DNA of 64,000 nucleotides from Oscillospiraceae bacterium (GTDB taxonomy: Bacteria > Bacillota > Clostridia > Oscillospirales > CAG-272). Under the pieces are notes generated by a model. That model was not told where the DNA came from. It searched no databases and saw only the letters and a program-made list of their open reading frames with translations. The stretch spans positions 1,336 through 65,335 of the forward strand of contig SVUF01000001.1 of NCBI GenBank assembly GCA_015063395.1. The letters are read 5' to 3'. The position numbers and the translations under genes are program-made. Positions within the stretch are counted from its first letter, which is position 1. Every line of letters begins with the position of its first letter. This document shows, one piece after another, positions 37,548 to 54,475 of this stretch.

Positions 37548-39056
37548 ATGAAGCTTACAAAAAAGATTATGGCGTTGGCTCTTGCACTGGTATCGTTGGT
37601 TTCATTTGCAGCATGTAACACTGCAGGCGGCGACCCGACAACAGCTCCCGTAACGGGCACCGGCCCCACGACATCAAGTGTAGTTACAACAACTCCTGAA
37701 AAAAGCAGTACTGCAACACCGGAAAATACGACTGCTACAGTGACGCCTTTGCCTTCAGCTGAGCCCACACCAACAACCGATGGGATCCCCACGGACCCAA
37801 AGGAATTTTATGAGTATAATTCCAACTATAACCTCAACACAGAAGAAGGAATTGGGGTACTTAAGGTTGGAAAATATAAGATCACCTTTACAGACGGTAC
37901 GGTTCTTTCCTATACTGAATCAGGACTTACAACAGGAGGGGACAAATTTGACTTTTCCCTTCAGTTCCAGAATGCGGGAAACGACCGCTCGGGTAAGGTT
38001 GGATATATGGTTATGCCGGGAGATACTCTTGAAAGATCACTTGCATGCTCGGGATCATCTGTGTCTCTCAAAACCACAGCATACAGAAACAACTATCAGG
38101 TTTGGAACCTTATCGAAAATGCTGACGGAAGCTATTGCTTTGTAAGCAAATCGGGGGACACCAAATATCTTTCTCTTTCCAAAGAGGACGGAAAGCTTTA
38201 TGCCAAGGGCAAAAATACCGAAGGATTTGTAAACACATTCAACCTTGAGCTTATTTCCGAAGGAAATGGTGTATGGGATCAGTACATCAGTGAAAAAGGA
38301 AACATTATAATCAGAATCAAAAAGCAATTCTATACATCTGCTCTTGTAAAGAAGGAGAGAATTGCAAAGCTTGTAAATGATATGCAGACGGTATATGAAA
38401 CATATCAGGACCTTACAAGCTTCACACCCTATGATTCAATTATAATCCATATTTTCCAGGACGAAAAATATTTTGCATACGTTGTTGGCGGATACAATAT
38501 TATTTCATTTAACTACAACAACGCAGTAACGGACTTGAGAAAAATGCAGTTCCGCACCGACAAGGAATATGCAAATGACTGGAGCTTCTGTCTCATGCAC
38601 GAAATGGGACATATGTTTGACTGGAACCGCGGTTGGAGATTTGACGGAGAATCCGCAACAAATATAAAGCTTGCATATGCTCTTTGGGCAAATCTTGACA
38701 AAAAGGCGGTTGCCGCTCAGTCGGGATATTCATACAAGGATTATTTTGACGGAAATACAATTTCTGAAACATGGAAGAGCGAAGCTCCCATGAAAATGGA
38801 GGACGGAAAGACCCTCGGAGAAAAGGTTGTGAGAACATGTTACATATTCTCAACTTATGCTCTCAATGAGATTGGATGGGAAGCCTTCCGTAAATCTTAT
38901 CACGAGATCAATGCTCTTGAAGCACAGCCCACCGATGTTAATGTAAGACTGAAAATATTTACCGATGCCCTTGAAAAGCATGGCGGAAAGCACATTAAGG
39001 ATTATATTGGTGAGGAAGAATGGAATGTTCTTGTGGCTAAATGCGCAGGTAATTAA
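37548..39056 (+). CDS. lipoprotein with a Pro/Thr-rich linker and a C-terminal putative zinc metallopeptidase domain (HEMGH..E; possibly M60-like/gluzincin)
   Basis: Lipobox LVSFAAC, the linker TTAPVTGTGPTTSSVVTTTPE..., and the motif CLMHEMGHMFDWNRGWRFDGES. The family assignment is unverified. Confidence 0.55.
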   Translation: MKLTKKIMALALALVSLVSFAACNTAGGDPTTAPVTGTGPTTSSVVTTTPEKSSTATPENTTATVTPLPSAEPTPTTDGIPTDPKEFYEYNSNYNLNTEEGIGVLKVGKYKITFTDGTVLSYTESGLTTGGDKFDFSLQFQNAGNDRSGKVGYMVMPGDTLERSLACSGSSVSLKTTAYRNNYQVWNLIENADGSYCFVSKSGDTKYLSLSKEDGKLYAKGKNTEGFVNTFNLELISEGNGVWDQYISEKGNIIIRIKKQFYTSALVKKERIAKLVNDMQTVYETYQDLTSFTPYDSIIIHIFQDEKYFAYVVGGYNIISFNYNNAVTDLRKMQFRTDKEYANDWSFCLMHEMGHMFDWNRGWRFDGESATNIKLAYALWANLDKKAVAAQSGYSYKDYFDGNTISETWKSEAPMKMEDGKTLGEKVVRTCYIFSTYALNEIGWEAFRKSYHEINALEAQPTDVNVRLKIFTDALEKHGGKHIKDYIGEEEWNVLVAKCAGN

Positions 39057-39118: not shown

Positions 39119-40741
39119 ATGAAAAAGATAATAGCCCTTGCGCTTGTTATTGCAACAATGCTTTCTTTTGCGGCTTGTACAACTGACAACACTGCAACAC
39201 CCACACCAACACCCACAGAAACGCAGAAAACAGAAGCTCCCGCAACAACGCCCGATCCGACTCCTTCTGCAACACCCACTCCCTCGGTGGAGCCGACGCC
39301 TACTCCTTCAGCAACGCCCACACCTACGGAGGATCTTGAGAAGGGTATGACCGAGGAAGAAATGGGAGTGCTTCCCGTTGGTAGATATAAGATCACAATT
39401 CCCGGCGTTGATGGATATTTGTCATTTGCGCTTTCAGAAAATAATATAGATAATGATAAGCCCCTTTTCGTTTCAAAAGAGGACAAGGACAATATTTTTA
39501 CAATCATTTATCAGACAACAGGAGAAAATCCCAGCTATACAATTTCTCCTAACGACGAAGTATATCATGTAATCGGACTTCCCGTTGCATATCCTTCATC
39601 ATCTACAATGAAGTCAGGTTCAGTTGTATACTCAAACTACCGTATGAGATATACAAACACAACAAGACCTCAGACACAGGATAGTTATGCTACGATCAGA
39701 TGGTACTTTGAACCCAATGAGGACGGAACATATAAGATGGCGATCTATTCCTCTACAAACTTCACAGTGTCCAATCTTACAAAATACTATGCTTCCTATG
39801 AGGATGGCAAGATCGTGCTCAGAAAGGAAAGCGAAAATATTTCAACAAACTTCAAGCTTGATATGATTGAGCGCGGAAGTGAGCAGTTCCTCCAGTATAT
39901 TTCCAACGAAGGAAAGATCACTCTCCGTCTGCCTCCCAAGATGAAGAAGGAATTCATCATCACTCTTGATAAGAAGCAGGGTAAGTTTACCGACGAGTTT
40001 GGTCAGACATGGGCGAACAATGCTGAAGATTGCTACTTCTCATTCATCGAGCTTACAAATTATATTCCCCACGAGAATATTATTGTAAAGGCATATGCAA
40101 ATTGTGACTACATGGCGTATGTAACAAGCGGTTATAATACCATTACAGCATCCTACAGTGCGGTAGGCAACGATTTCGGAAACGCATCCACATGGTTCTC
40201 CAATGACATTAAGGAAATGGTTGCAAGAGGACCTGAGGCAAGAGACGTAAACTTCGGAGTTATGCACGAAATGGGACACATGTTCGATATCGGCGCGGAC
40301 TGGTACTTTGAGACAGAGTCCATGACAGACTTTAAGCTTGCTTACTGTCTTGATAAGAACGGACTTTCCGCTTCCCCCTCTGAGTTCACAACGTCCCAGT
40401 ATTTCACATACAGCAATATTGAGGAAGCATACCTTTCACTTGGTAAGGACATTTCCAAGACAAATGAGTATACATTCTACGGTGCCGCTTACCGAATGAT
40501 CCTGATTCAAAAGGAACTTGGTTGGGAGCCCTTCAGACAGACATACCACTGGTTTATGGAAAACAGAACAAAGATCGGAACTGACGAGCATGTGGCAATA
40601 CCCACAAAGAAATATGAAAAGTGTGAGCTTTTCTACAAGAAGGTTTCCGAGTTTGCAGGCAGAGATGTTGTAGCCATGATCCCCGCAAACGAATGGAAGG
40701 TTTGGCTTGAATATATGGGTAAGCCCGCTGACGAAGAATAA
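39119..40741 (+). CDS. paralogous lipoprotein with a Pro/Thr-rich linker and a putative zinc metallopeptidase domain (HEMGH..E)
   Basis: Lipobox MLSFAAC, the linker PTPTPTETQKTEAPATTPDPTPSATPTPS..., and the motif GVMHEMGHMFDIGADWYFETES. The architecture is colinear with 37548-39056. Confidence 0.55.
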   Translation: MKKIIALALVIATMLSFAACTTDNTATPTPTPTETQKTEAPATTPDPTPSATPTPSVEPTPTPSATPTPTEDLEKGMTEEEMGVLPVGRYKITIPGVDGYLSFALSENNIDNDKPLFVSKEDKDNIFTIIYQTTGENPSYTISPNDEVYHVIGLPVAYPSSSTMKSGSVVYSNYRMRYTNTTRPQTQDSYATIRWYFEPNEDGTYKMAIYSSTNFTVSNLTKYYASYEDGKIVLRKESENISTNFKLDMIERGSEQFLQYISNEGKITLRLPPKMKKEFIITLDKKQGKFTDEFGQTWANNAEDCYFSFIELTNYIPHENIIVKAYANCDYMAYVTSGYNTITASYSAVGNDFGNASTWFSNDIKEMVARGPEARDVNFGVMHEMGHMFDIGADWYFETESMTDFKLAYCLDKNGLSASPSEFTTSQYFTYSNIEEAYLSLGKDISKTNEYTFYGAAYRMILIQKELGWEPFRQTYHWFMENRTKIGTDEHVAIPTKKYEKCELFYKKVSEFAGRDVVAMIPANEWKVWLEYMGKPADEE

Positions 40742-40890: not shown

Positions 40891-41514
40891 ATGAATGACA
40901 ATCAATTAAAAGAAAATAATGATATTCGTGACGTATCGCTTAAAAACAAAACGGTGGTGACACCGGAGGTTTACTGCGAATTTTCCGACCACAGCATGGA
41001 TTTTTGCAAAGGCAGTCTTGCTATGAAAAAATTATCAAAAATTCTCAATTTGATCTTATTGACGATTTTAAAGTTATGCATAGAGATTGGTGGCGGTCTG
41101 ATTATAATTAACTTTTTTTCAAGATTTGAAGGTACTTTGGAGTATCTGAAAATCTTTATCTACGCTGTAGTATTGTCAATTCTGCTCATAATTCTTAATT
41201 ACTTTGACTATATCAGCTTCAGCAAGAAGATCAATAGATTTTTCTTTAAAAACTACAAAACAATTAATACAGAATATACGTTCAGGGATAACGGTTTTAC
41301 CGACGTTTCCGTAAGGGGTAAAAAGACGAAAACAATAAACGTTCCCTACCGCAAGATCAAGTACGTTTATGAAATAGAAAACCTTATTCTGCTGTATAAC
41401 ACCCCTTTCTCTGCCTATATCGTACAAAAAAACGGATTTGAAACTGCTGAGGATCTTGAGGCTTTTTGCGGAATTTTAAAAAGAAAAATCACCAAAAACA
41501 ACTATTTAAAATAG
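40891..41514 (+). CDS. YcxB-like membrane protein (two TM helices plus a C-terminal YcxB-type domain)
   Basis: Two central TM helices, then VPYRKIKYVYEIENLILLYNTPFSAYIVQKNGFETAEDLEAFCGILKRK, a pattern I associate with PF14317. Confidence 0.5.
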   Translation: MNDNQLKENNDIRDVSLKNKTVVTPEVYCEFSDHSMDFCKGSLAMKKLSKILNLILLTILKLCIEIGGGLIIINFFSRFEGTLEYLKIFIYAVVLSILLIILNYFDYISFSKKINRFFFKNYKTINTEYTFRDNGFTDVSVRGKKTKTINVPYRKIKYVYEIENLILLYNTPFSAYIVQKNGFETAEDLEAFCGILKRKITKNNYLK

Positions 41515-41783: not shown

Positions 41784-42866
41784 ATGGAAACTTCAAGAAT
41801 AATAAAAGCGGCTATAATCGGATGCGGCGGAATTGCAAAAAGCAAGCATATGCCGGGACTTGCTACTGTTGAAAATGTAAAGATGGTGGCATTTTGTGAT
41901 ATCATTCCCGAAAGAGCCGAGGAAGCAAAGGAAAAGTTCGGAACTCCCGATGCAAAGGTATATACTGATTATAAGGAGCTTCTCAAGGATAAGGAAATTG
42001 ACGTTGTACATATTTGTACCCCAAATCGTTCGCACAGCTTCATCACAATTGATTCTCTCAGAGCGGGAAAGCACGTAATGGTTGAAAAGCCCATGGCAAA
42101 AACCGCCGAGGAGGCTCGCGAAATGTGCCGTGTTGCAAAAGAAACAGGCATGAAGCTTACGGTTGGTTATCAGAACAGATGCCGTCCCGAAAGCCTTGAG
42201 CTGAGACGCAGGATCAAGGAAGGAGAGCTTGGTGAGATCTACTATGCAAAGGCATTGGCTCTTCGCCGCCGTAAGACGCCTACATGGGGCGTATTCCTCA
42301 ATGAATTTGAGCAGGGCGGAGGACCCCTCATAGACATTGGAACCCATGCTCTTGACCTTACCCTCTATATGCTTGACAACTACAAGCCCAAGATGGTTGT
42401 CGGAACCAAATATAAAAAGCTGACAGACCCCAATTGCGCAAACGAATGGGGACCTTGGGATCCCAAGGAGCATACCGTTGAGGATTCCGCCTTCGGATTT
42501 ATCATAATGCAGGACGGTACAACCATCAATCTTGAATCAAGCTGGGCGCTTAACATACTTGATCCCATTGAGGCAAGTACAGTTCTTTGCGGAACAAAGG
42601 CGGGAGCGCAGATCAAGAATCAGCAGCTTTTCCTCAATTATGACAAGGACGGAAAACTCTGCGAGGAATGTCCCGACATGAACTACACCACCACAATGAA
42701 GCTTACTGCCGCTGCAATTGAAGCAAAGCAGTGGATCGAAGCCATTGTAAACGATACAGACCCCTGTGTGCTTCCCGAGGAGGCATGCGCCGTTTCAGAG
42801 ATACTGGAAGCGGTTTATGAGTCTGCGGCAAATGGAGGCAAACCCGTATTTTTTGACGAAAAATAA
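41784..42866 (+). CDS. Gfo/Idh/MocA family NAD(P)-dependent oxidoreductase
   Basis: The N-terminal Rossmann segment AAIIGCGGIAKSKHMP, then EKPMA, 360 aa. Confidence 0.85.
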   Translation: METSRIIKAAIIGCGGIAKSKHMPGLATVENVKMVAFCDIIPERAEEAKEKFGTPDAKVYTDYKELLKDKEIDVVHICTPNRSHSFITIDSLRAGKHVMVEKPMAKTAEEAREMCRVAKETGMKLTVGYQNRCRPESLELRRRIKEGELGEIYYAKALALRRRKTPTWGVFLNEFEQGGGPLIDIGTHALDLTLYMLDNYKPKMVVGTKYKKLTDPNCANEWGPWDPKEHTVEDSAFGFIIMQDGTTINLESSWALNILDPIEASTVLCGTKAGAQIKNQQLFLNYDKDGKLCEECPDMNYTTTMKLTAAAIEAKQWIEAIVNDTDPCVLPEEACAVSEILEAVYESAANGGKPVFFDEK

Positions 42867-43090
42867 TAAATAGCAAGTAAAAGAGCCGTAAAAAACTCAT
42901 TGAGTTGTTTATGGCTCTCTGTTTTATAAAGAATTATAAAAAAATTCCGATTTTTTTCAAGGAACACCCAACCTTTTTAATCTTTTTAGGGACTTATAAG
43001 TGAAAGCCCCAAAAAACAAAAGGCAATGGAAAAGGATCCGAGGCATAACCGCGGAGGCTGTAGGGTCAGGATAACGGAAAGGGAAACAAA

Positions 43091-45700
43091 ATGAATAAGT
43101 ATTTAAACCATAGTGACGAAAACCTTGTTGAGCTGTCTTTGCTTGGAAACCAAGCGGCATTTGAAGAGCTTGTCAGAAGACATGAGGGCGCAGTAATGGG
43201 AACGGCGTATAAGGTAACGGAAAACCGATTTTCTGCACAGGATGCTTCACAGGACGCCTTTGTATGCGCTTGGATAAATCTTGATAAGCTTCAGAAACGA
43301 GGCAGCTTTGGGTCGTGGGTATGTAATATAGCGAGAAATAAGGCGTATAAGCTTGTGGCGCATTACAGAAACGCCATACCCGATATAAGCCTTGACGTTA
43401 TGAAAATTATGTCTGCCACAGATGAAGAAAACGAGGAGCTTATGGAAATGCTTGGTCTTTCTGATTATTCCCGTGATGAGGAGCTGTCGGAGCTTCGCTT
43501 GGCAGTGGAAGCTCTCAGTGAAAAGATCAGACAGACGGTAAAGCTGCATTATTTTGAAGGACTTTCCGTAATGGAGATTTCAAAGCGTCTGTTTATACCC
43601 GTAGGAACGGTAAAATACAGACTCAGTGAGGGGCGTAAGCAACTGAGAAAGGAATATGGAATTATGGAAAAGACATACGATGAAAACGAAAGCATAAAGG
43701 ATCGTGTAATGAGACATGTTGAGCAGTTGAAGCTTTGGAGAATAAGGGAAGACCGTACGGGCTTTGAGGCAGAATACCGACAGGTTCTTGAGGCTGTTGA
43801 AAATCTTGAGGAGTCAATTGAAAAGAAATATGCTCTTGCAGACGTACTCAGGGCAGGATATTGGTGGATTCCCGGCGAAAAGAACGATGAGATTCTTGAA
43901 AGAATGAAGACGGCGGCTCTTGAAAGCCACAACGAAGAGGTCATGGAAACCGTAATTGCCGTTGAGGAAGAAAGATACAGCGGCGCAGAAAAGCTGAAGT
44001 TCATGGAGGAAACACAGATCCCTTGGCTTCGCGACAACGGATTTACAGATGCTCTGGCATATGCTTATTTCTGGTACGGCTACTATCAGGGTAATGAGGG
44101 TAACTATGAGAAATTAGTAGACTCATATAAAAAGGTACTGGAGCTTCTTACACCCGATAAGCTATACTATGCCAATACACTCGCGGCATTGGAGCTTGAA
44201 GAAAAGCTTCATTCTCTTGGAGAAATCGACAATTTCAAATATTCGATGAGAGCAACGGGCGAGGTATATAAGTATATAGACGGTAAGCTCTATTTCTGGA
44301 CGCAGCCGGGATATAACAGAGGATACTTTGAGTCTGTTGACGACTGTCTGTTCTGGAATTGTTCAAGAATTGGCAAAATGATCCTTGATCCTGAAATGAA
44401 GCAGGGAGAGGTCAAGACCTCCAAGGACGGATTGAGCAAAATTACATGTAAGGATAAAAATGCAGTAATAGAAACTCCTGCAGGTAGGTTTGAAAATTGC
44501 AGCGTATACGTTTTAGAAGGCAATTTTTACGGAAGAACCTATTGTGAAACCGCCTTTGCGCCCGATGTGGGAATTGTAAGTCAGACCTTGAATAATTACG
44601 GTTCAAGGGATACATGGCTTTTGAAGGAGTATGAGATCCATGGCGGCGAGGGCTTGTTCCCCATGGGAACGGGCAATAAATGGAGCTATACCGTAGATAA
44701 CCCCGAGGGCATGGAGCTTGAGGTTCTGAATACCTTTGAGATTACAGGCTCCGATGGCAACAGCGCAACTGTAAAGTCATGTGCCTTTAGTATGCTTTTG
44801 AACTATGATGATTCATGGATGGGCAATATACTTAAAATGAGAAATAATTATGCAGAGCAAGAGGGAAATGACGGTCGACTTCTTGACGTTAGTCATGAGA
44901 TGAAGCGTGCTGCCGAGCTTGCAGTAACCAAGAGACAAAAGGTTCATACCGCAATTGCCAACGAGGTAATGGAAAGAATCTTTGATACCGACGAGAATTT
45001 CAATCCCGAATATACCGAAAGAGGACTCTGGAACTTCTTTGAGTACTGTCCCGTACAGCGTGAAAACGGTAAGGTAAGGATGGACTGTGACAGAAGCTAT
45101 TCGTTTGAGTGGAAGGAGGTAGGCGATTGGTCGGGAGAAAGATTCAAGCTTCTTTACAGCTTCCTTTACGATATTCTGTGCGATGCCGCAGGATGCGTAT
45201 GGAGCGACGAATGGGTTCCCGGCTATCACCGTGACGAGAAGAAAGATTCACATTGGAACGGCGCACAGCATCTTATTTTCGACGTTCTTGAGGATGAAAA
45301 GGTCATCACCAAGGCAGGAGAATTTGAAAACTGCCGTCATATAAAGCTCAGCCTTGTGGGATTAAACGGCGGATACGGATACCGTGGCGGTCATATGGAA
45401 TACTGGTTTGCTCCCGAGGTTGGAATAGTTAAGTTCTCACGTCCCTACGGCGAGGGTGGAAAGCTTGATTGCATCTGGGAGCTGACGGACTACAGGGGAA
45501 AGGGAGAGGGCTATTTCCCCACAGATGACGGACTTTTCCGCAGATACGAGCCCACAGAGCTTGGCAGTGGATATCACGGATCCGTTGAATACACCTTTGA
45601 TACCGATGAAAACGGAACGGTAATGTTCCGCAACGCCCTTGGAACACAGGACAGAGCAGATTTTGAGGCATTTCGCAGGGCAAAAGAGAATAAACAATAA
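43091..45700 (+). CDS. ECF-type sigma-70 family factor fused to a ~670-aa C-terminal extension of unknown function
   Basis: Residues ~1-190 carry region 2 (FEELVRRHEGAVMGTAYKV..DASQDAFVCAW) and region 4 (LHYFEGLSVMEISKRLFIPVGTVKYRLSEGRKQL). The remainder has no hydrophobic TM stretch and contains an internal duplication (AG.FENC...FAP.VGIV). Confidence 0.75.
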   Translation: MNKYLNHSDENLVELSLLGNQAAFEELVRRHEGAVMGTAYKVTENRFSAQDASQDAFVCAWINLDKLQKRGSFGSWVCNIARNKAYKLVAHYRNAIPDISLDVMKIMSATDEENEELMEMLGLSDYSRDEELSELRLAVEALSEKIRQTVKLHYFEGLSVMEISKRLFIPVGTVKYRLSEGRKQLRKEYGIMEKTYDENESIKDRVMRHVEQLKLWRIREDRTGFEAEYRQVLEAVENLEESIEKKYALADVLRAGYWWIPGEKNDEILERMKTAALESHNEEVMETVIAVEEERYSGAEKLKFMEETQIPWLRDNGFTDALAYAYFWYGYYQGNEGNYEKLVDSYKKVLELLTPDKLYYANTLAALELEEKLHSLGEIDNFKYSMRATGEVYKYIDGKLYFWTQPGYNRGYFESVDDCLFWNCSRIGKMILDPEMKQGEVKTSKDGLSKITCKDKNAVIETPAGRFENCSVYVLEGNFYGRTYCETAFAPDVGIVSQTLNNYGSRDTWLLKEYEIHGGEGLFPMGTGNKWSYTVDNPEGMELEVLNTFEITGSDGNSATVKSCAFSMLLNYDDSWMGNILKMRNNYAEQEGNDGRLLDVSHEMKRAAELAVTKRQKVHTAIANEVMERIFDTDENFNPEYTERGLWNFFEYCPVQRENGKVRMDCDRSYSFEWKEVGDWSGERFKLLYSFLYDILCDAAGCVWSDEWVPGYHRDEKKDSHWNGAQHLIFDVLEDEKVITKAGEFENCRHIKLSLVGLNGGYGYRGGHMEYWFAPEVGIVKFSRPYGEGGKLDCIWELTDYRGKGEGYFPTDDGLFRRYEPTELGSGYHGSVEYTFDTDENGTVMFRNALGTQDRADFEAFRRAKENKQ

Positions 45701-45762: not shown

Positions 45763-47490
45763 TCAGTCTACATTTGAAATGGCATTGATCATTTCCGTAA
45801 CCTTTGCCTTGATAAGCTCTGCCGCGTTGTCTGCGGTGAGATCTACGGTAAAGGACTTATCTCTTGCGGAAAGCTCAATTGCTCCTCGTTCAAGAGTTCT
45901 TGGGCTGACAACTGCACGGAGAGGTACGCCTATAAGGTCTGCATCTGCAAACATAGAGCCTGCACCGATGTTTCTGTCATCATAGATAACCTCAACGCCA
46001 AGCTTTTTCAGATCCTCATAGAGCTTATCCGCTGTCTTTCTTACATTTTCATCGTCAACACGGAGAGCGCAGAGCTGAACCTGCCACGGTGCTATGGTAA
46101 TGGGCCAGATAGGTCCAAACTTGTCACGGCGTACCTGACATACGGAGGCGATAAGTCTTCCCACACCGATACCGTAACAGCCCATAATGGGGCACTGAAG
46201 CTCGCCGTTGCTGTCAAGGTACTGAAGTCCCATGGATTCTGTATATTTTGTTCCAAGCTGGAATATATTACCAACCTCAATACCGCGGCTGATCTTAATG
46301 GAATGCTTGCCGCAAACAGGACATATACCGCCCTCAAATGCTTTTGCAACGCTTACGTATTCAACATCTCCAATATCACGAGCCATATTCATTCCAACAT
46401 AGTGGTAGTCGGTCTTGTTAGCCCCCGCAACGAAGCTTTCAAGAGTGCGAAGTGACTCGTCATATACAACGGTAACGCCCTCGGGGAGTCCCTTGGGTCC
46501 TATATATCCTGCGCAAACCCCCATTTCCTCGGTGACGATTGCAGGGTGGATATCTGCCTTCAAGTGATTCTTGAGCTTTGTTTCGTTTACGTCAAGGTCA
46601 CCTCTCAGGAATACGATAACAAGGGAATCGTCAACGTTTCTCTGATAAAGCACTGCCTTGCATGAATTGATGGCAGGCTTCTTGAGGTATGTACATACCT
46701 CCTCAATTGTTTTATATCCGGGTGTGTGAACCTCGGCAAGCTCTTCAACTCCGCAGGGAGCATTTTCAACAATGCAGTCAGCCGCTTCCATATTGGAACG
46801 GTAATTACATTCGGGACAGATCACAATTGTGTCCTCACCGATGTCTGTAAGAAGCATGAATTCATGGGAAACGCGTCCGCCCATCATGCCCGAGTCGGAT
46901 TTAACTGCCACGACCTCCGGTACTCCGCAGCGTGCGAAAATACGCTCGTAGGCATGGTAGCAAATCTCATAGTACTTTTCAAGATCCTCTTGTGAGGTGT
47001 GGAAGGAGTATGCATCCTTCATTGTAAATTCACGGGTACGGATAAGTCCTCCGCGGGAACGGGGCTCATCTCTGAACTTGGTCTGGATCTGGTAGATCAT
47101 GAACGGATATTTTGCATATGACTGAGCCACATCTCTTACGATCTGAACAGCCGCTTCCTCATGTGTCATTCCAAGGACCATATCAATGCCGTTTCTGTCC
47201 TTGAAGCGCAGAAGCTCGGATCCGATGGAATCAAAACGTCCCGATTCCTGCCACAATGCTCCGGGCATTACTACGGGGAACAATACCTCCTGTCCGTCGA
47301 TTCTGTCCATTTCCTCTCTCATGATGGTTTCGATCTTGTGGGCGATACGCTTTGTTGCAGGGAACATTGAGAATACTCCTGTTCCAACAGGCTTGATATA
47401 TCCGCCCCTCATCATAAGTGACTGGCTTTCAATTATACAATCGGCAGGAGCTTTTTTTTCGGTTTTAAATAATAATTGCTGTACCTTCAT
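45763..47490 (-). CDS. proS: proline--tRNA ligase (bacterial type with an editing insertion)
   Basis: 575 aa. The N-terminus (ESQSLMMRGGYIKPVGTGVFSMFP) and the class II motifs and anticodon-binding C-terminus are typical of ProRS. Confidence 0.92.
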   Translation of the reverse strand: MKVQQLLFKTEKKAPADCIIESQSLMMRGGYIKPVGTGVFSMFPATKRIAHKIETIMREEMDRIDGQEVLFPVVMPGALWQESGRFDSIGSELLRFKDRNGIDMVLGMTHEEAAVQIVRDVAQSYAKYPFMIYQIQTKFRDEPRSRGGLIRTREFTMKDAYSFHTSQEDLEKYYEICYHAYERIFARCGVPEVVAVKSDSGMMGGRVSHEFMLLTDIGEDTIVICPECNYRSNMEAADCIVENAPCGVEELAEVHTPGYKTIEEVCTYLKKPAINSCKAVLYQRNVDDSLVIVFLRGDLDVNETKLKNHLKADIHPAIVTEEMGVCAGYIGPKGLPEGVTVVYDESLRTLESFVAGANKTDYHYVGMNMARDIGDVEYVSVAKAFEGGICPVCGKHSIKISRGIEVGNIFQLGTKYTESMGLQYLDSNGELQCPIMGCYGIGVGRLIASVCQVRRDKFGPIWPITIAPWQVQLCALRVDDENVRKTADKLYEDLKKLGVEVIYDDRNIGAGSMFADADLIGVPLRAVVSPRTLERGAIELSARDKSFTVDLTADNAAELIKAKVTEMINAISNVD

Positions 47491-51652: not shown

Positions 51653-52150
51653 ATGATAAAATTTGAAGGCAGTTTATCAGAGACTTGCTATAAATTTTTT
51701 GTAAAGGCAAGGTTTAAATATGCTATAAAGGGTTGGCTTATTGTGGAGATATTCTTTTTATGTCCATTTTTAACTTTGGCTCTATTATTTGATTCTCCTG
51801 AGTGGCACATATTTTACATATGTATTGTTGCAGTTTGTTCACTTGGTTTAGGTTTATTGTTTTTGCTTCCACCATTAAAATATAATTACGAAAATGTCGT
51901 ACCCAAAAAAGTTGTTTTTTACGAGGATGGACATATGCAGGCTCAAACAAAAAACCTTAAGGAACACAGAACAATTGACAATGTAAAGTATGTTGTTGAT
52001 TTTGGCGAGGGCTATTTTATATATTTTGATTGGTGGCACAAAAGCATATCTTTTATCTGTCAAAAGGATTTAGTATCTGAAGATAGCATAGAAAAATTCG
52101 AGAAACTTTTTGAAGGCAGAATTGAACGTGTTCAGAATAAAAATAAATAA
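51653..52150 (+). CDS. YcxB-like membrane protein (paralogue of 53975-54475)
   Basis: Two TM helices, then ...FICQKDLVSEDSIEKFEKLFEGRIERVQNK. The C-terminus is near-identical in pattern to the 53975 product. Confidence 0.5.
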   Translation: MIKFEGSLSETCYKFFVKARFKYAIKGWLIVEIFFLCPFLTLALLFDSPEWHIFYICIVAVCSLGLGLLFLLPPLKYNYENVVPKKVVFYEDGHMQAQTKNLKEHRTIDNVKYVVDFGEGYFIYFDWWHKSISFICQKDLVSEDSIEKFEKLFEGRIERVQNKNK

Positions 52151-53701: not shown

Positions 53702-53974
53702 AAAAGGATTCATAATACATAAAAAATTAAGATAAATCACCGGCAATATCATAAATCACTGTAAAAATTACTAAAATTTACAGAAATCTCATCGATTATC
53801 CCAAAAAATCGTTAATTATCCCAAATCGTTGACTTTTTTCTCAATTTATGTTACCGTATAAGCGGAAAAAGGTCAAACGTGGTATGGGGTGACGGACTGA
53901 AGAGTTACAATGGTTCAGCCGCCATTACAACAATCATTTCATCCGTAAACTTAACATATAAGGAGGTACACAAT

Positions 53975-54475
53975 ATGAATAGTGTTTTTGAATTTACAGG
54001 TGAATTATCAACAAAAGTTAAAAAGCGTATTTGTAATATTCACAAAATTACAACTTTAATTATCTTAACCATATCTACGCCAATTAGTCTTTTAATATCA
54101 TTGCCCGTGATAGGTTTGCTTATGGAAAACGGTACAAAGATAGCTCTTATAGTTACTGCATTGAGCTATCCGGTATTAATGATTATGTTGGCATTGATTT
54201 ATCCTACAAAATATGAGTATCCCGAAATTTTTCCTAAAATAATTTATATCACAGATGATGGATATATTGTAAGCCGGTGCGAAAAAGCAAAACGTGAAGA
54301 TAGCATTGACGGGGTTAAAAATGTTAAGGATTACGGTGAATGGTATGAGATAAACTTCTCAGGCGTTAAACACAAAGGCTTTTTTGTATGTCAAAAAGAC
54401 TTGTTAACAAAAGGATCCATTGAAGAATTTGAAAAGCTTTTTGAAGGCAGGATCGAGCGTATACAGAATAAATAA
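53975..54475 (+). CDS. YcxB-like membrane protein (paralogue of 51653-52150)
   Basis: AAGGAGG at 53960-53966 is followed by ATG 53975. Two TM helices, then ...FFVCQKDLLTKGSIEEFEKLFEGRIERIQNK. Confidence 0.5.
   Translation: MNSVFEFTGELSTKVKKRICNIHKITTLIILTISTPISLLISLPVIGLLMENGTKIALIVTALSYPVLMIMLALIYPTKYEYPEIFPKIIYITDDGYIVSRCEKAKREDSIDGVKNVKDYGEWYEINFSGVKHKGFFVCQKDLLTKGSIEEFEKLFEGRIERIQNK

Follow-up and report, generated by a model that had tools for sequence, protein, structure and literature searches.

How is an RNA polymerase sigma factor controlled when its gene has no anti-sigma gene beside it? This question is raised by one open reading frame (ORF) in the window analysed here, which is the whole stretch of 64,000 nucleotides from an Oscillospiraceae/Ruminococcaceae metagenome-assembled genome (MAG). 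The product of this ORF (GenBank MBE6542797.1) carries the sole annotation 'RNA polymerase sigma factor', and the original prediction had read it as an extracytoplasmic function (ECF) sigma factor fused to a large soluble extension. Within the "third pillar" of bacterial signalling, ECF sigma factors that carry fused regulatory domains form the branch about which least is understood, and to our knowledge three extension types only, SnoaL, tetratricopeptide repeat (TPR) and Cys-rich, have an experimental basis. From its sequence and a structural model, we consider it fairly probable that the protein is a functional ECF sigma factor that transcribes its own gene and whose activity is set in cis by a 670-amino-acid cytoplasmic extension, without a separate anti-sigma factor. 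The ORF and its two sigma regions are as follows.

43091-45700, plus strand: whole ORF, ATG start, 869 amino acids; ECF sigma factor with a fused C-terminal extension
43169-43357, plus strand: Sigma-70 region 2, amino acids 27-89 (Pfam PF04542, Sigma70_r2, E=2.6e-12)
43490-43651, plus strand: Sigma-70 region 4, amino acids 134-187 (Pfam PF08281, Sigma70_r4_2, at amino acids 134-185, E=5.6e-11)

The sigma core was claimed to be a complete sigma2-sigma4 unit, and besides the two Pfam regions it passed the NCBIfam sigma70-ECF superfamily model TIGR02937 with 81.2 bits over a cut-off of 42.9, while the Pfam scan found neither sigma region 3 nor region 1.1 in the protein. Judged by its regions 2 and 4 and by the ECF model, the gene product is a genuine group-4 (ECF-type) sigma factor. 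Every equivalog model was missed, the best being those of SigW (NF007223, 91.1 bits against 209; TIGR02948, 81.7 bits against 243). The nearest solved relatives of the core by sequence are SigW, AlgU and RpoE (E=3.8e-17 to 1e-13), with Bacillus subtilis SigW at the top. The 27-residue linker between sigma2 and sigma4 (amino acids 101-127) is disordered and poorly conserved, and its predicted local distance difference test (pLDDT) score is below 50 at amino acids 103-123.

The fused architecture is widespread. With the extension as query, 181 protein clusters (90% identity) were retrieved, nearly all of them 825-905 amino acids long, equipped with the sigma domains and 44-97% identical, and relatives were present in at least 448 genomes in a scan of one genome per species. 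The best 80 of these relatives all come from gut, rumen or digester Clostridia labelled Oscillospiraceae, Acutalibacteraceae, Anaerotruncus, Ruminococcus, Faecousia or Flemingiibacterium, and some MAGs hold two paralogues. Candidatus Apopatosoma intestinale is also a carrier. When 1.84 billion cluster representatives were searched exhaustively by HMMER, using a profile of the C-terminal twin beta domains described below, 188 matched at E<=1e-30. In almost all full-length hits the match starts at residue ~360-385, therefore the twin-beta module is essentially confined to the sigma-fusion architecture. The few database entries that lack the sigma part, P0070 (684 amino acids) and P0094 (667 amino acids), are truncated gene calls, because they cluster with full-length members and lie on short contigs. 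By this sequence record, the sigma-extension fusion is a conserved family of gut and rumen Clostridia, shared by hundreds of genomes of Oscillospiraceae and other Clostridia at 38-97% identity, and not an artefact.

The second line of evidence is the promoter. Upstream regions of 200 nt from 79 family members were aligned, and the elements found in the window are listed here.

42966-43002, plus strand: ECF-type promoter, ACCCAACCTTTT-N13-GACTTATAAGTG, ~120 nt 5' of the ATG
42968-42973, plus strand: -35 element CCAACC, with a 17-nt spacer to the -10 element
42991-42996, plus strand: -10 element GACTTA (family consensus GTCTTA)
43003-43090, plus strand: 5' leader, which starts with the family-conserved AAAGCCCCAAAAAA and has the Shine-Dalgarno-like run GGAAAGGGAAA before the ATG

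The promoter occurs in 76 of the 79 upstream regions, with CCAACC(T/C)T in the -35 block, as ACCCAACCTTTT, 13 nt and then GTCTTATA(G/A)GTGAA, at 59-125 nt 5' of the start codon, and is kept down to 38% protein identity. The spacing is invariant in 62 of these 76 promoters and the -35 block holds ~1.8 bits per position. The family consensus CCAACC(TTTT)-N17-GTCTTA thus has the two-block ECF layout, and no sigma-70-type promoter was found upstream of the gene on the plus strand. SigW of B. subtilis, AlgU of Pseudomonas aeruginosa and RpoE of Escherichia coli likewise use two-block promoters with an AAC-containing -35 and a GTC-containing -10, but these proteins, ~190 amino acids long, are bound by anti-sigma factors that are separate membrane proteins, unlike the protein in the window. 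Autoregulation is common to most ECF sigma factors, and the sigma gene is almost certainly autoregulated; positive autoregulation from CCAACC-N17-GTCTTA would be the simplest reading of the aligned sequences. The conserved own promoter is also the strongest indirect sign that the protein works as a sigma factor. Directly 3' of the -10 element, most close homologues share GTGAA(A/C)(G)CCCC(A)AAAA (43000-43016 in the window), of which the GTG ahead of AAAGCCCCAAAAAA belongs to the promoter part (43000-43002). This stretch exceeds what a promoter needs and may be an initial-transcribed or leader element; the leader matched no known RNA or riboswitch family in Rfam.

To describe the extension, the full-length protein was modelled by AlphaFold2 from a 58-sequence alignment of homologues, with a mean pLDDT of 87.5 and a predicted template modelling score (pTM) of 0.70. 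The model is laid out as sigma2 (amino acids 1-100), the disordered linker (amino acids 103-123), sigma4 (amino acids 128-189), a disordered stretch (amino acids 188-199) and then the extension, whose parts are given below. The C-terminal 494 residues modelled separately reached a pLDDT of 89.5 and a pTM of 0.83.

43652-43693, plus strand: post-sigma4 linker, amino acids 188-201, EYGIMEKTYDENES; predicted disordered (pLDDT <50 at amino acids 188-199), yet strongly conserved
43694-44215, plus strand: all-helical domain, amino acids 202-375, nine helices in the secondary structure of the model
44057-44146, plus strand: single canonical TPR motif, amino acids 323-352, inside the helical domain
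44240-44806, plus strand: beta-rich domain 1, amino acids 384-572; DUF3108-like copy 1 (TPAGRFENC ... FAPDVGIV ... GGEGLFP)
44816-44986, plus strand: helical insert of three helices between the beta domains, amino acids 576-632
45017-45652, plus strand: beta-rich domain 2, amino acids 643-854; DUF3108-like copy 2 (TKAGEFENC ... WFAPEVGIV ... GKGEGYFP)

A C-terminal helix (amino acids 855-868) follows beta domain 2 in the model. As the original prediction had it, the protein has no hydrophobic transmembrane segment, because its highest 19-residue Kyte-Doolittle mean is only 1.23 (amino acids 685-703). The helical, TPR-like stretch described there is real, but it contains a single TPR motif only. 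In the window protein alone this motif is a weak TPR_8 match in Pfam (amino acids 323-352, E=0.23). TPR_2 matches 17 of 21 family members (best E=5.6e-8), consensus-TPR structures in the PDB match the family profile at the same position, and Foldseek with the full model listed the TPR structures LGN, Tom70, CTPR and Sgt1 among its matches. The duplicated module lies at the positions first proposed for it. BLASTP aligned amino acids ~462-528 with ~740-814 (nucleotides ~44474-44674 and ~45308-45532) at 41% identity over 76 residues (E=4e-7), and hhalign of family profile against family profile gave a probability of 98.9% and E=3.6e-17 over 120 columns; therefore the repeat unit is ~120 amino acids long rather than the ~100 first estimated.

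Profile comparisons suggest that the beta domains are remote homologues of DUF3108-like exported lipoproteins. The family profile of the repeat module matches PDB 4fvs_A ("putative lipoprotein", E=4e-6) and 3fzx_A ("putative exported protein", E=2.5e-5), and both matches span TPAG-F-xC ... YW(F/Y)AP-GIV. The Pfam family PF21347 (DUF3108_like) is matched weakly by the window protein itself (amino acids 732-792, E=3e-3, 17.9 bits against a cut-off of 27) and is recorded for most homologues, and two homologues that were looked up have only 'faint' matches. The common module can be written TPAG-F-(x)C ... Y-W(F/Y)AP-(V/I)G(I/L)V, but DUF3108-like proteins such as 4FVS and 3FZX are single-domain, exported and ~215 amino acids long, whereas the window protein has two cytoplasmic copies of the domain joined to a sigma factor. 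Since Foldseek of the full model was dominated by the sigma part, the beta region was modelled on its own; it gave weak matches to ligand-binding proteins of the SRPBCC/START/Bet v 1-like kind with one or two domains (StfQ, BexL, DynU16, Aha1-C, PYL, XoxI) and weak outer-membrane-barrel matches, all with template modelling (TM) scores <=0.35. In the model, the SRPBCC/START-like resemblance is a hint and not a fold assignment. The Cys of the F-E-N-C motif (Cys470, 44498-44500, and Cys748, 45332-45334) is invariant in both repeats of the 58 homologues and is also present in 4FVS and 3FZX; it may serve a structural purpose or provide a thiol or ligand site. The other searches of the extension returned no enzymatic family (Pfam, NCBIfam and PDB sequence searches), and a likeness to S-adenosylmethionine methyltransferases in a direct sequence search against the PDB was noise (E about 0.15).

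How the extension relates to the core was read from conservation and from the model. Column identity in the family is 0.75-0.76 in sigma2/sigma4 and 0.36 in the sigma2-sigma4 linker. It is 0.75 in the post-sigma4 linker and 0.74 in the first four helices (amino acids 202-280), then 0.60 in the TPR region (amino acids 281-375) and 0.57-0.64 in the beta domains. By both model and conservation, four conserved helices (amino acids 202-279) come straight after sigma4. The part of the extension that adjoins the core therefore evolves as slowly as the core itself, which argues for intimate functional contact, and the conservation of the post-sigma4 linker and first helices fits regulation in cis at the sequence level. 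The sigma2/sigma4 arrangement in the model resembles the compact ECF sigma factors bound to anti-sigma factors (SigW/RsiW, AlgU/MucA, sigmaE/RseA; TM 0.44-0.51) more than the polymerase-bound ECF forms (TM 0.27-0.39), and 1or7 (sigmaE/RseA) was among the Foldseek matches listed, whereas the holoenzyme form of the same protein was not. The modelled core may thus be closer to the anti-sigma-bound than to the polymerase-bound state; this evidence is weak because AlphaFold may favour compact states. We favour a one-component model because the near-core extension is conserved like the core and the modelled core is compact.

Under this model, the post-sigma4 linker and the first four helices would pack on sigma2 and sigma4, so that the core is held closed and RNA polymerase is not bound. 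The TPR-containing helical region would connect the clamp with the two DUF3108-like beta domains, to which either a ligand inside the cell, probably a small hydrophobic one, or a partner protein would bind. Binding would shift the conformation and release the sigma core, and the released core would boost its own synthesis and switch on a small regulon scattered in the genome. The fusion probably senses a signal inside the cell. The architecture, the conservation of the fusion, the conserved promoter of autoregulatory type and the lack of a conserved partner gene are observed, whereas we infer which way control runs, what the signal is and which genes form the regulon.

Several points weigh against this mechanism. 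AlphaFold tends towards compact ECF conformations anyway. No anti-sigma domain (ASD family or anti-sigma chain) was recognised by sequence in the Pfam scan or in the family-profile searches, which included amino acids 196-380 and returned TPR only, and the protein contains no ZAS motif (HxxxCxxC). Ligand binding is a guess, given how poorly the beta domains matched known structures in Foldseek. Just two further strong promoter sites turned up in the ~1 Mb of homologous loci scanned. The TPR extension of ECF42 is required for activity and not inhibitory (PMC8999054), and the sign of control could therefore be opposite here. The most specific form of the mechanism, a self-contained cytoplasmic one-component sigma factor spread widely among Oscillospirales of gut and rumen, with a duplicated DUF3108-like ligand sensor and a conserved helical clamp beside sigma4 as built-in anti-sigma element, is a tentative proposal that we hold to be possible and somewhat doubtful.

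The case of ECF42 leads to a different explanation, that the extension acts positively: the helical/TPR part would be needed for polymerase or promoter binding and would recruit a partner protein encoded elsewhere, and the beta domains would be a partner-binding surface and not a small-molecule sensor. ECF42 (Sven_0747 of Streptomyces venezuelae, ECF-10 of Pseudomonas putida) is indeed like the window protein in that an ECF core is joined to a soluble TPR-containing extension that decides activity, with no anti-sigma factor. A true TPR motif, typically an element of protein-protein interaction, is conserved in the window family, the helices adjoining sigma4 are highly conserved, and the extension of ECF42 is essential for its activity (PMC8999054). 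However, the ECF42 extension has ~200 amino acids of TPRs only, an extension type by which the window protein is set apart from that group: its own 670 residues are more than three times as long and hold a single detectable TPR motif and two DUF3108-like domains. ECF42 occurs in Actinobacteria and Proteobacteria, whereas the window family occurs in Clostridia only. Moreover, no conserved partner gene lies nearby in the 85 loci compared, and the sigma core looks closed, not open, in the model. We regard a positive extension of this kind as unlikely.

Conservation of the disordered linker EYGIMEKTYDENES also allows that it is a cleavage or degron site, at which a cut frees a 190-residue sigma factor from an inhibitory, anti-sigma-like extension. 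Release by proteolysis has been proposed for ECF48, ECF52 and ECF53 (PMC8999054). The linker is predicted to be disordered yet is conserved like the sigma domains, and an unrelated 560-amino-acid sigma-fusion family of the same bacteria has a similar G-(I/M)-x-x-M-x-K-T motif after its sigma4. The same conservation could equally mean an intramolecular contact, clustering of the flanking ORFs associated no protease gene with the sigma gene, and the known fusions activated by proteolysis are mostly membrane-anchored, whereas the window protein is soluble. Proteolytic activation is thus quite improbable in our estimate.

That the extension is non-regulatory (an enzyme, a scaffold or a means of polymerase localisation), or that the protein is a DNA-binding regulator without a sigma role, seems very unlikely. 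The large size of the extension, a DUF3108-like fold without known function, and a FENC Cys invariant in both repeats and common to the lipoproteins 4FVS and 3FZX would suit such a role; both sigma regions, however, are intact and conserved, the upstream motif has the two blocks, the fixed spacer and the distance from the start codon of an ECF promoter, and the searches returned no enzymatic family. An artefactual fusion of a sigma gene with a downstream gene, for which a frameshift or misassembly near 43650-43700 had been named and to which the few sigma-less entries might point, can be set aside almost completely, as the fused architecture is conserved: the same continuous ORF recurs in hundreds of independent assemblies, few parts of the protein are better conserved than the junction, and the sigma-less entries are truncated gene calls on short contigs.

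Control in cis by the fused extension, the reading we prefer, has precedents, as C-terminal extensions are known to regulate ECF41, ECF42 and ECF238 in cis, and the reviews count about 19-26 ECF groups with extensions (PMC7826278; PMC8999054). The types described are SnoaL-like (ECF41, 56, 205, 294, 295), TPR (ECF42), Cys-rich (ECF238, 287, 288), WD40-like (ECF57), membrane/zinc-finger (ECF48, 52, 53), DUF1835 (ECF264) and multi-transmembrane (ECF263); a helical domain with twin DUF3108-like domains is not among them (PMC7826278; PMC8999054). A literature search found no link between DUF3108 and a sigma factor. ECF41 (SigJ of Mycobacterium tuberculosis, Ecf41 of Bacillus licheniformis) shares the one-component logic, in that its fused soluble domain touches both core and linker and tunes activity, presumably when a ligand binds, but this is a single SnoaL-like domain of about 100-150 amino acids. 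The window protein has no SnoaL match, neither in the Pfam scan up to E=1 nor among the fold matches, and so lacks the C-terminal domain that defines ECF41, ECF56, ECF205, ECF294 and ECF295. It also lacks the short Cys-rich extension (e.g. CGxxGxGxCxC) of ECF238, ECF287 and ECF288: the 12 Cys residues of its extension are scattered and form no cluster. ECF57 resembles it in having long, repeat-containing WD40-like extensions, but is planctomycetal and based on a beta-propeller. ECF57 and ECF262 are listed as groups with uncharacterised extensions, and the model protein of ECF262, SFB89493.1, comes from Ruminococcus albus (PMC8999054, Table 2), a relative of the carriers of the window family. 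This family, or the separate 560-amino-acid fusion family, may correspond to ECF262.

An ECF sigma factor with a fused regulatory extension is therefore of a kind already known, and the family may sit undescribed in the ECF classification; what is new here is the conserved family promoter CCAACC(TTTT)-N17-GTCTTA. The window family adds an extension that is much larger and of a different kind, made of a helical/TPR part and twin DUF3108-like domains, and the family occurs commonly in gut and rumen Clostridia that are abundant but little studied. Because the target promoter is precise and conserved, the system is directly testable with a reporter and truncations. The sigma/promoter pair could serve as an orthogonal part and the fusion could give the first functional handle on the DUF3108-like fold. 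If the DUF3108-like sensor with a helical clamp is true, this fold would gain its first function, and ECF regulation a new mechanistic class that comes with an orthogonal promoter/sigma pair ready for use.

Which genes the sigma factor serves was approached through its neighbours and through promoter copies elsewhere. The genes on either side are the following.

41784-42866: Gfo/Idh/MocA oxidoreductase gene, upstream neighbour of the sigma gene
45763-47490, minus strand: proS, convergent downstream neighbour, 62 nt from the sigma gene

With these two as neighbours, the absence of an adjacent anti-sigma gene held true. All-against-all clustering of the flanking ORFs of 85 loci revealed no conserved neighbour or anti-sigma gene, and homologues adjoin unrelated genes such as ABC exporters, helix-turn-helix regulators, the pst operon and phage-like genes. 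The original prediction had proposed a search for a shared ECF-type motif upstream of 43091 and of the neighbouring genes, and had named the tandem HEMGH lipoprotein genes and the oxidoreductase gene as candidate targets. The shared motif is the promoter described above, present in the homologues and in the window and at none of the neighbouring genes. A position-weight-matrix scan of the 64-kb window found one site, the sigma gene's own at 37 bits, and everything else scored <=14 bits; shuffled sequences gave 0-1 matches. With this single copy in the window, the lipoprotein and oxidoreductase genes therefore have no shared promoter, and with neighbourhoods that are not conserved they are unlikely targets.

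The first of the two further strong sites (L001:4170-4296) is a duplication of the sigma promoter, leader and first codons before an ABC exporter gene pair that sits immediately upstream of the sigma gene; by sequence, this pair is the clearest candidate regulon member anywhere. The second, at locus L072, precedes a gene for a small membrane protein and a MutS-domain-V ATPase. Scanning metagenome contigs for the exact pattern gave 43 loci, 12 of them the family's own promoters, and the remaining sites lie before unrelated, mostly Bacteroidetes-type secreted proteins or have no clear context. The regulon is probably small and dispersed. A divergent MutS-domain-V ATPase of 500-535 amino acids is encoded <=6 kb from the sigma gene in 5 of the 85 loci (L001:11552-13138, L055:2767-4260, L057:9564-11123, L072:1625-3136, L085:2108-3715; 25-41% identical between loci) in varying arrangements, and none is encoded in the window.

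Two further groups of fusions accompany the family. A subfamily of 1040-1150 amino acids (L063-L085, e.g. L072:3185-6430; P0132, P0169-P0174) is 38-39% identical and owes its length to an extra C-terminal region of ~200 amino acids that matches nothing in Pfam. In its promoter CCAACCTTTT and GTCT are retained, but a palindromic GTCTTAAAGAC and AGCGCTTAAAA come next, and in some cases both subfamilies occur in one MAG (L025 with L063; L055 with L083). A second, unrelated sigma-fusion family in the genomes of the homologues, the one already mentioned for its motif after sigma4, has 556-560 amino acids, with sigma2-sigma4 and a soluble extension of ~370 amino acids. Its core is 28% identical to that in the window and its promoter is similar, TCCAACCTTTT-N11-CGTGTCTATATAAGTGAAAGCTTTCAA (L033:9546-9608, L063:77-139, L076:9250-9311). 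Judging from these sequences, several one-component sigma-fusion families with related promoters seem to exist in these Clostridia.

Other genes of the window were noted in passing. The tandem lipoprotein genes (37548-39056 and 39119-40741) encode the HEMGH motif and Thr/Pro-rich linkers; the first product matches Peptidase_M60 (enhancin-like) below the threshold (E=7e-4), and the second matches nothing in Pfam. The gene at 40891-41514 encodes a YcxB-like protein. Two paralogous small membrane proteins (51653-52150 and 53879-54475) share the tail ...(I/S)IE(K/E)FEKLFEGRIER(V/I)QNK, and the region at 52-54 kb that holds them has a G+C content of 0.30 compared with about 0.43.

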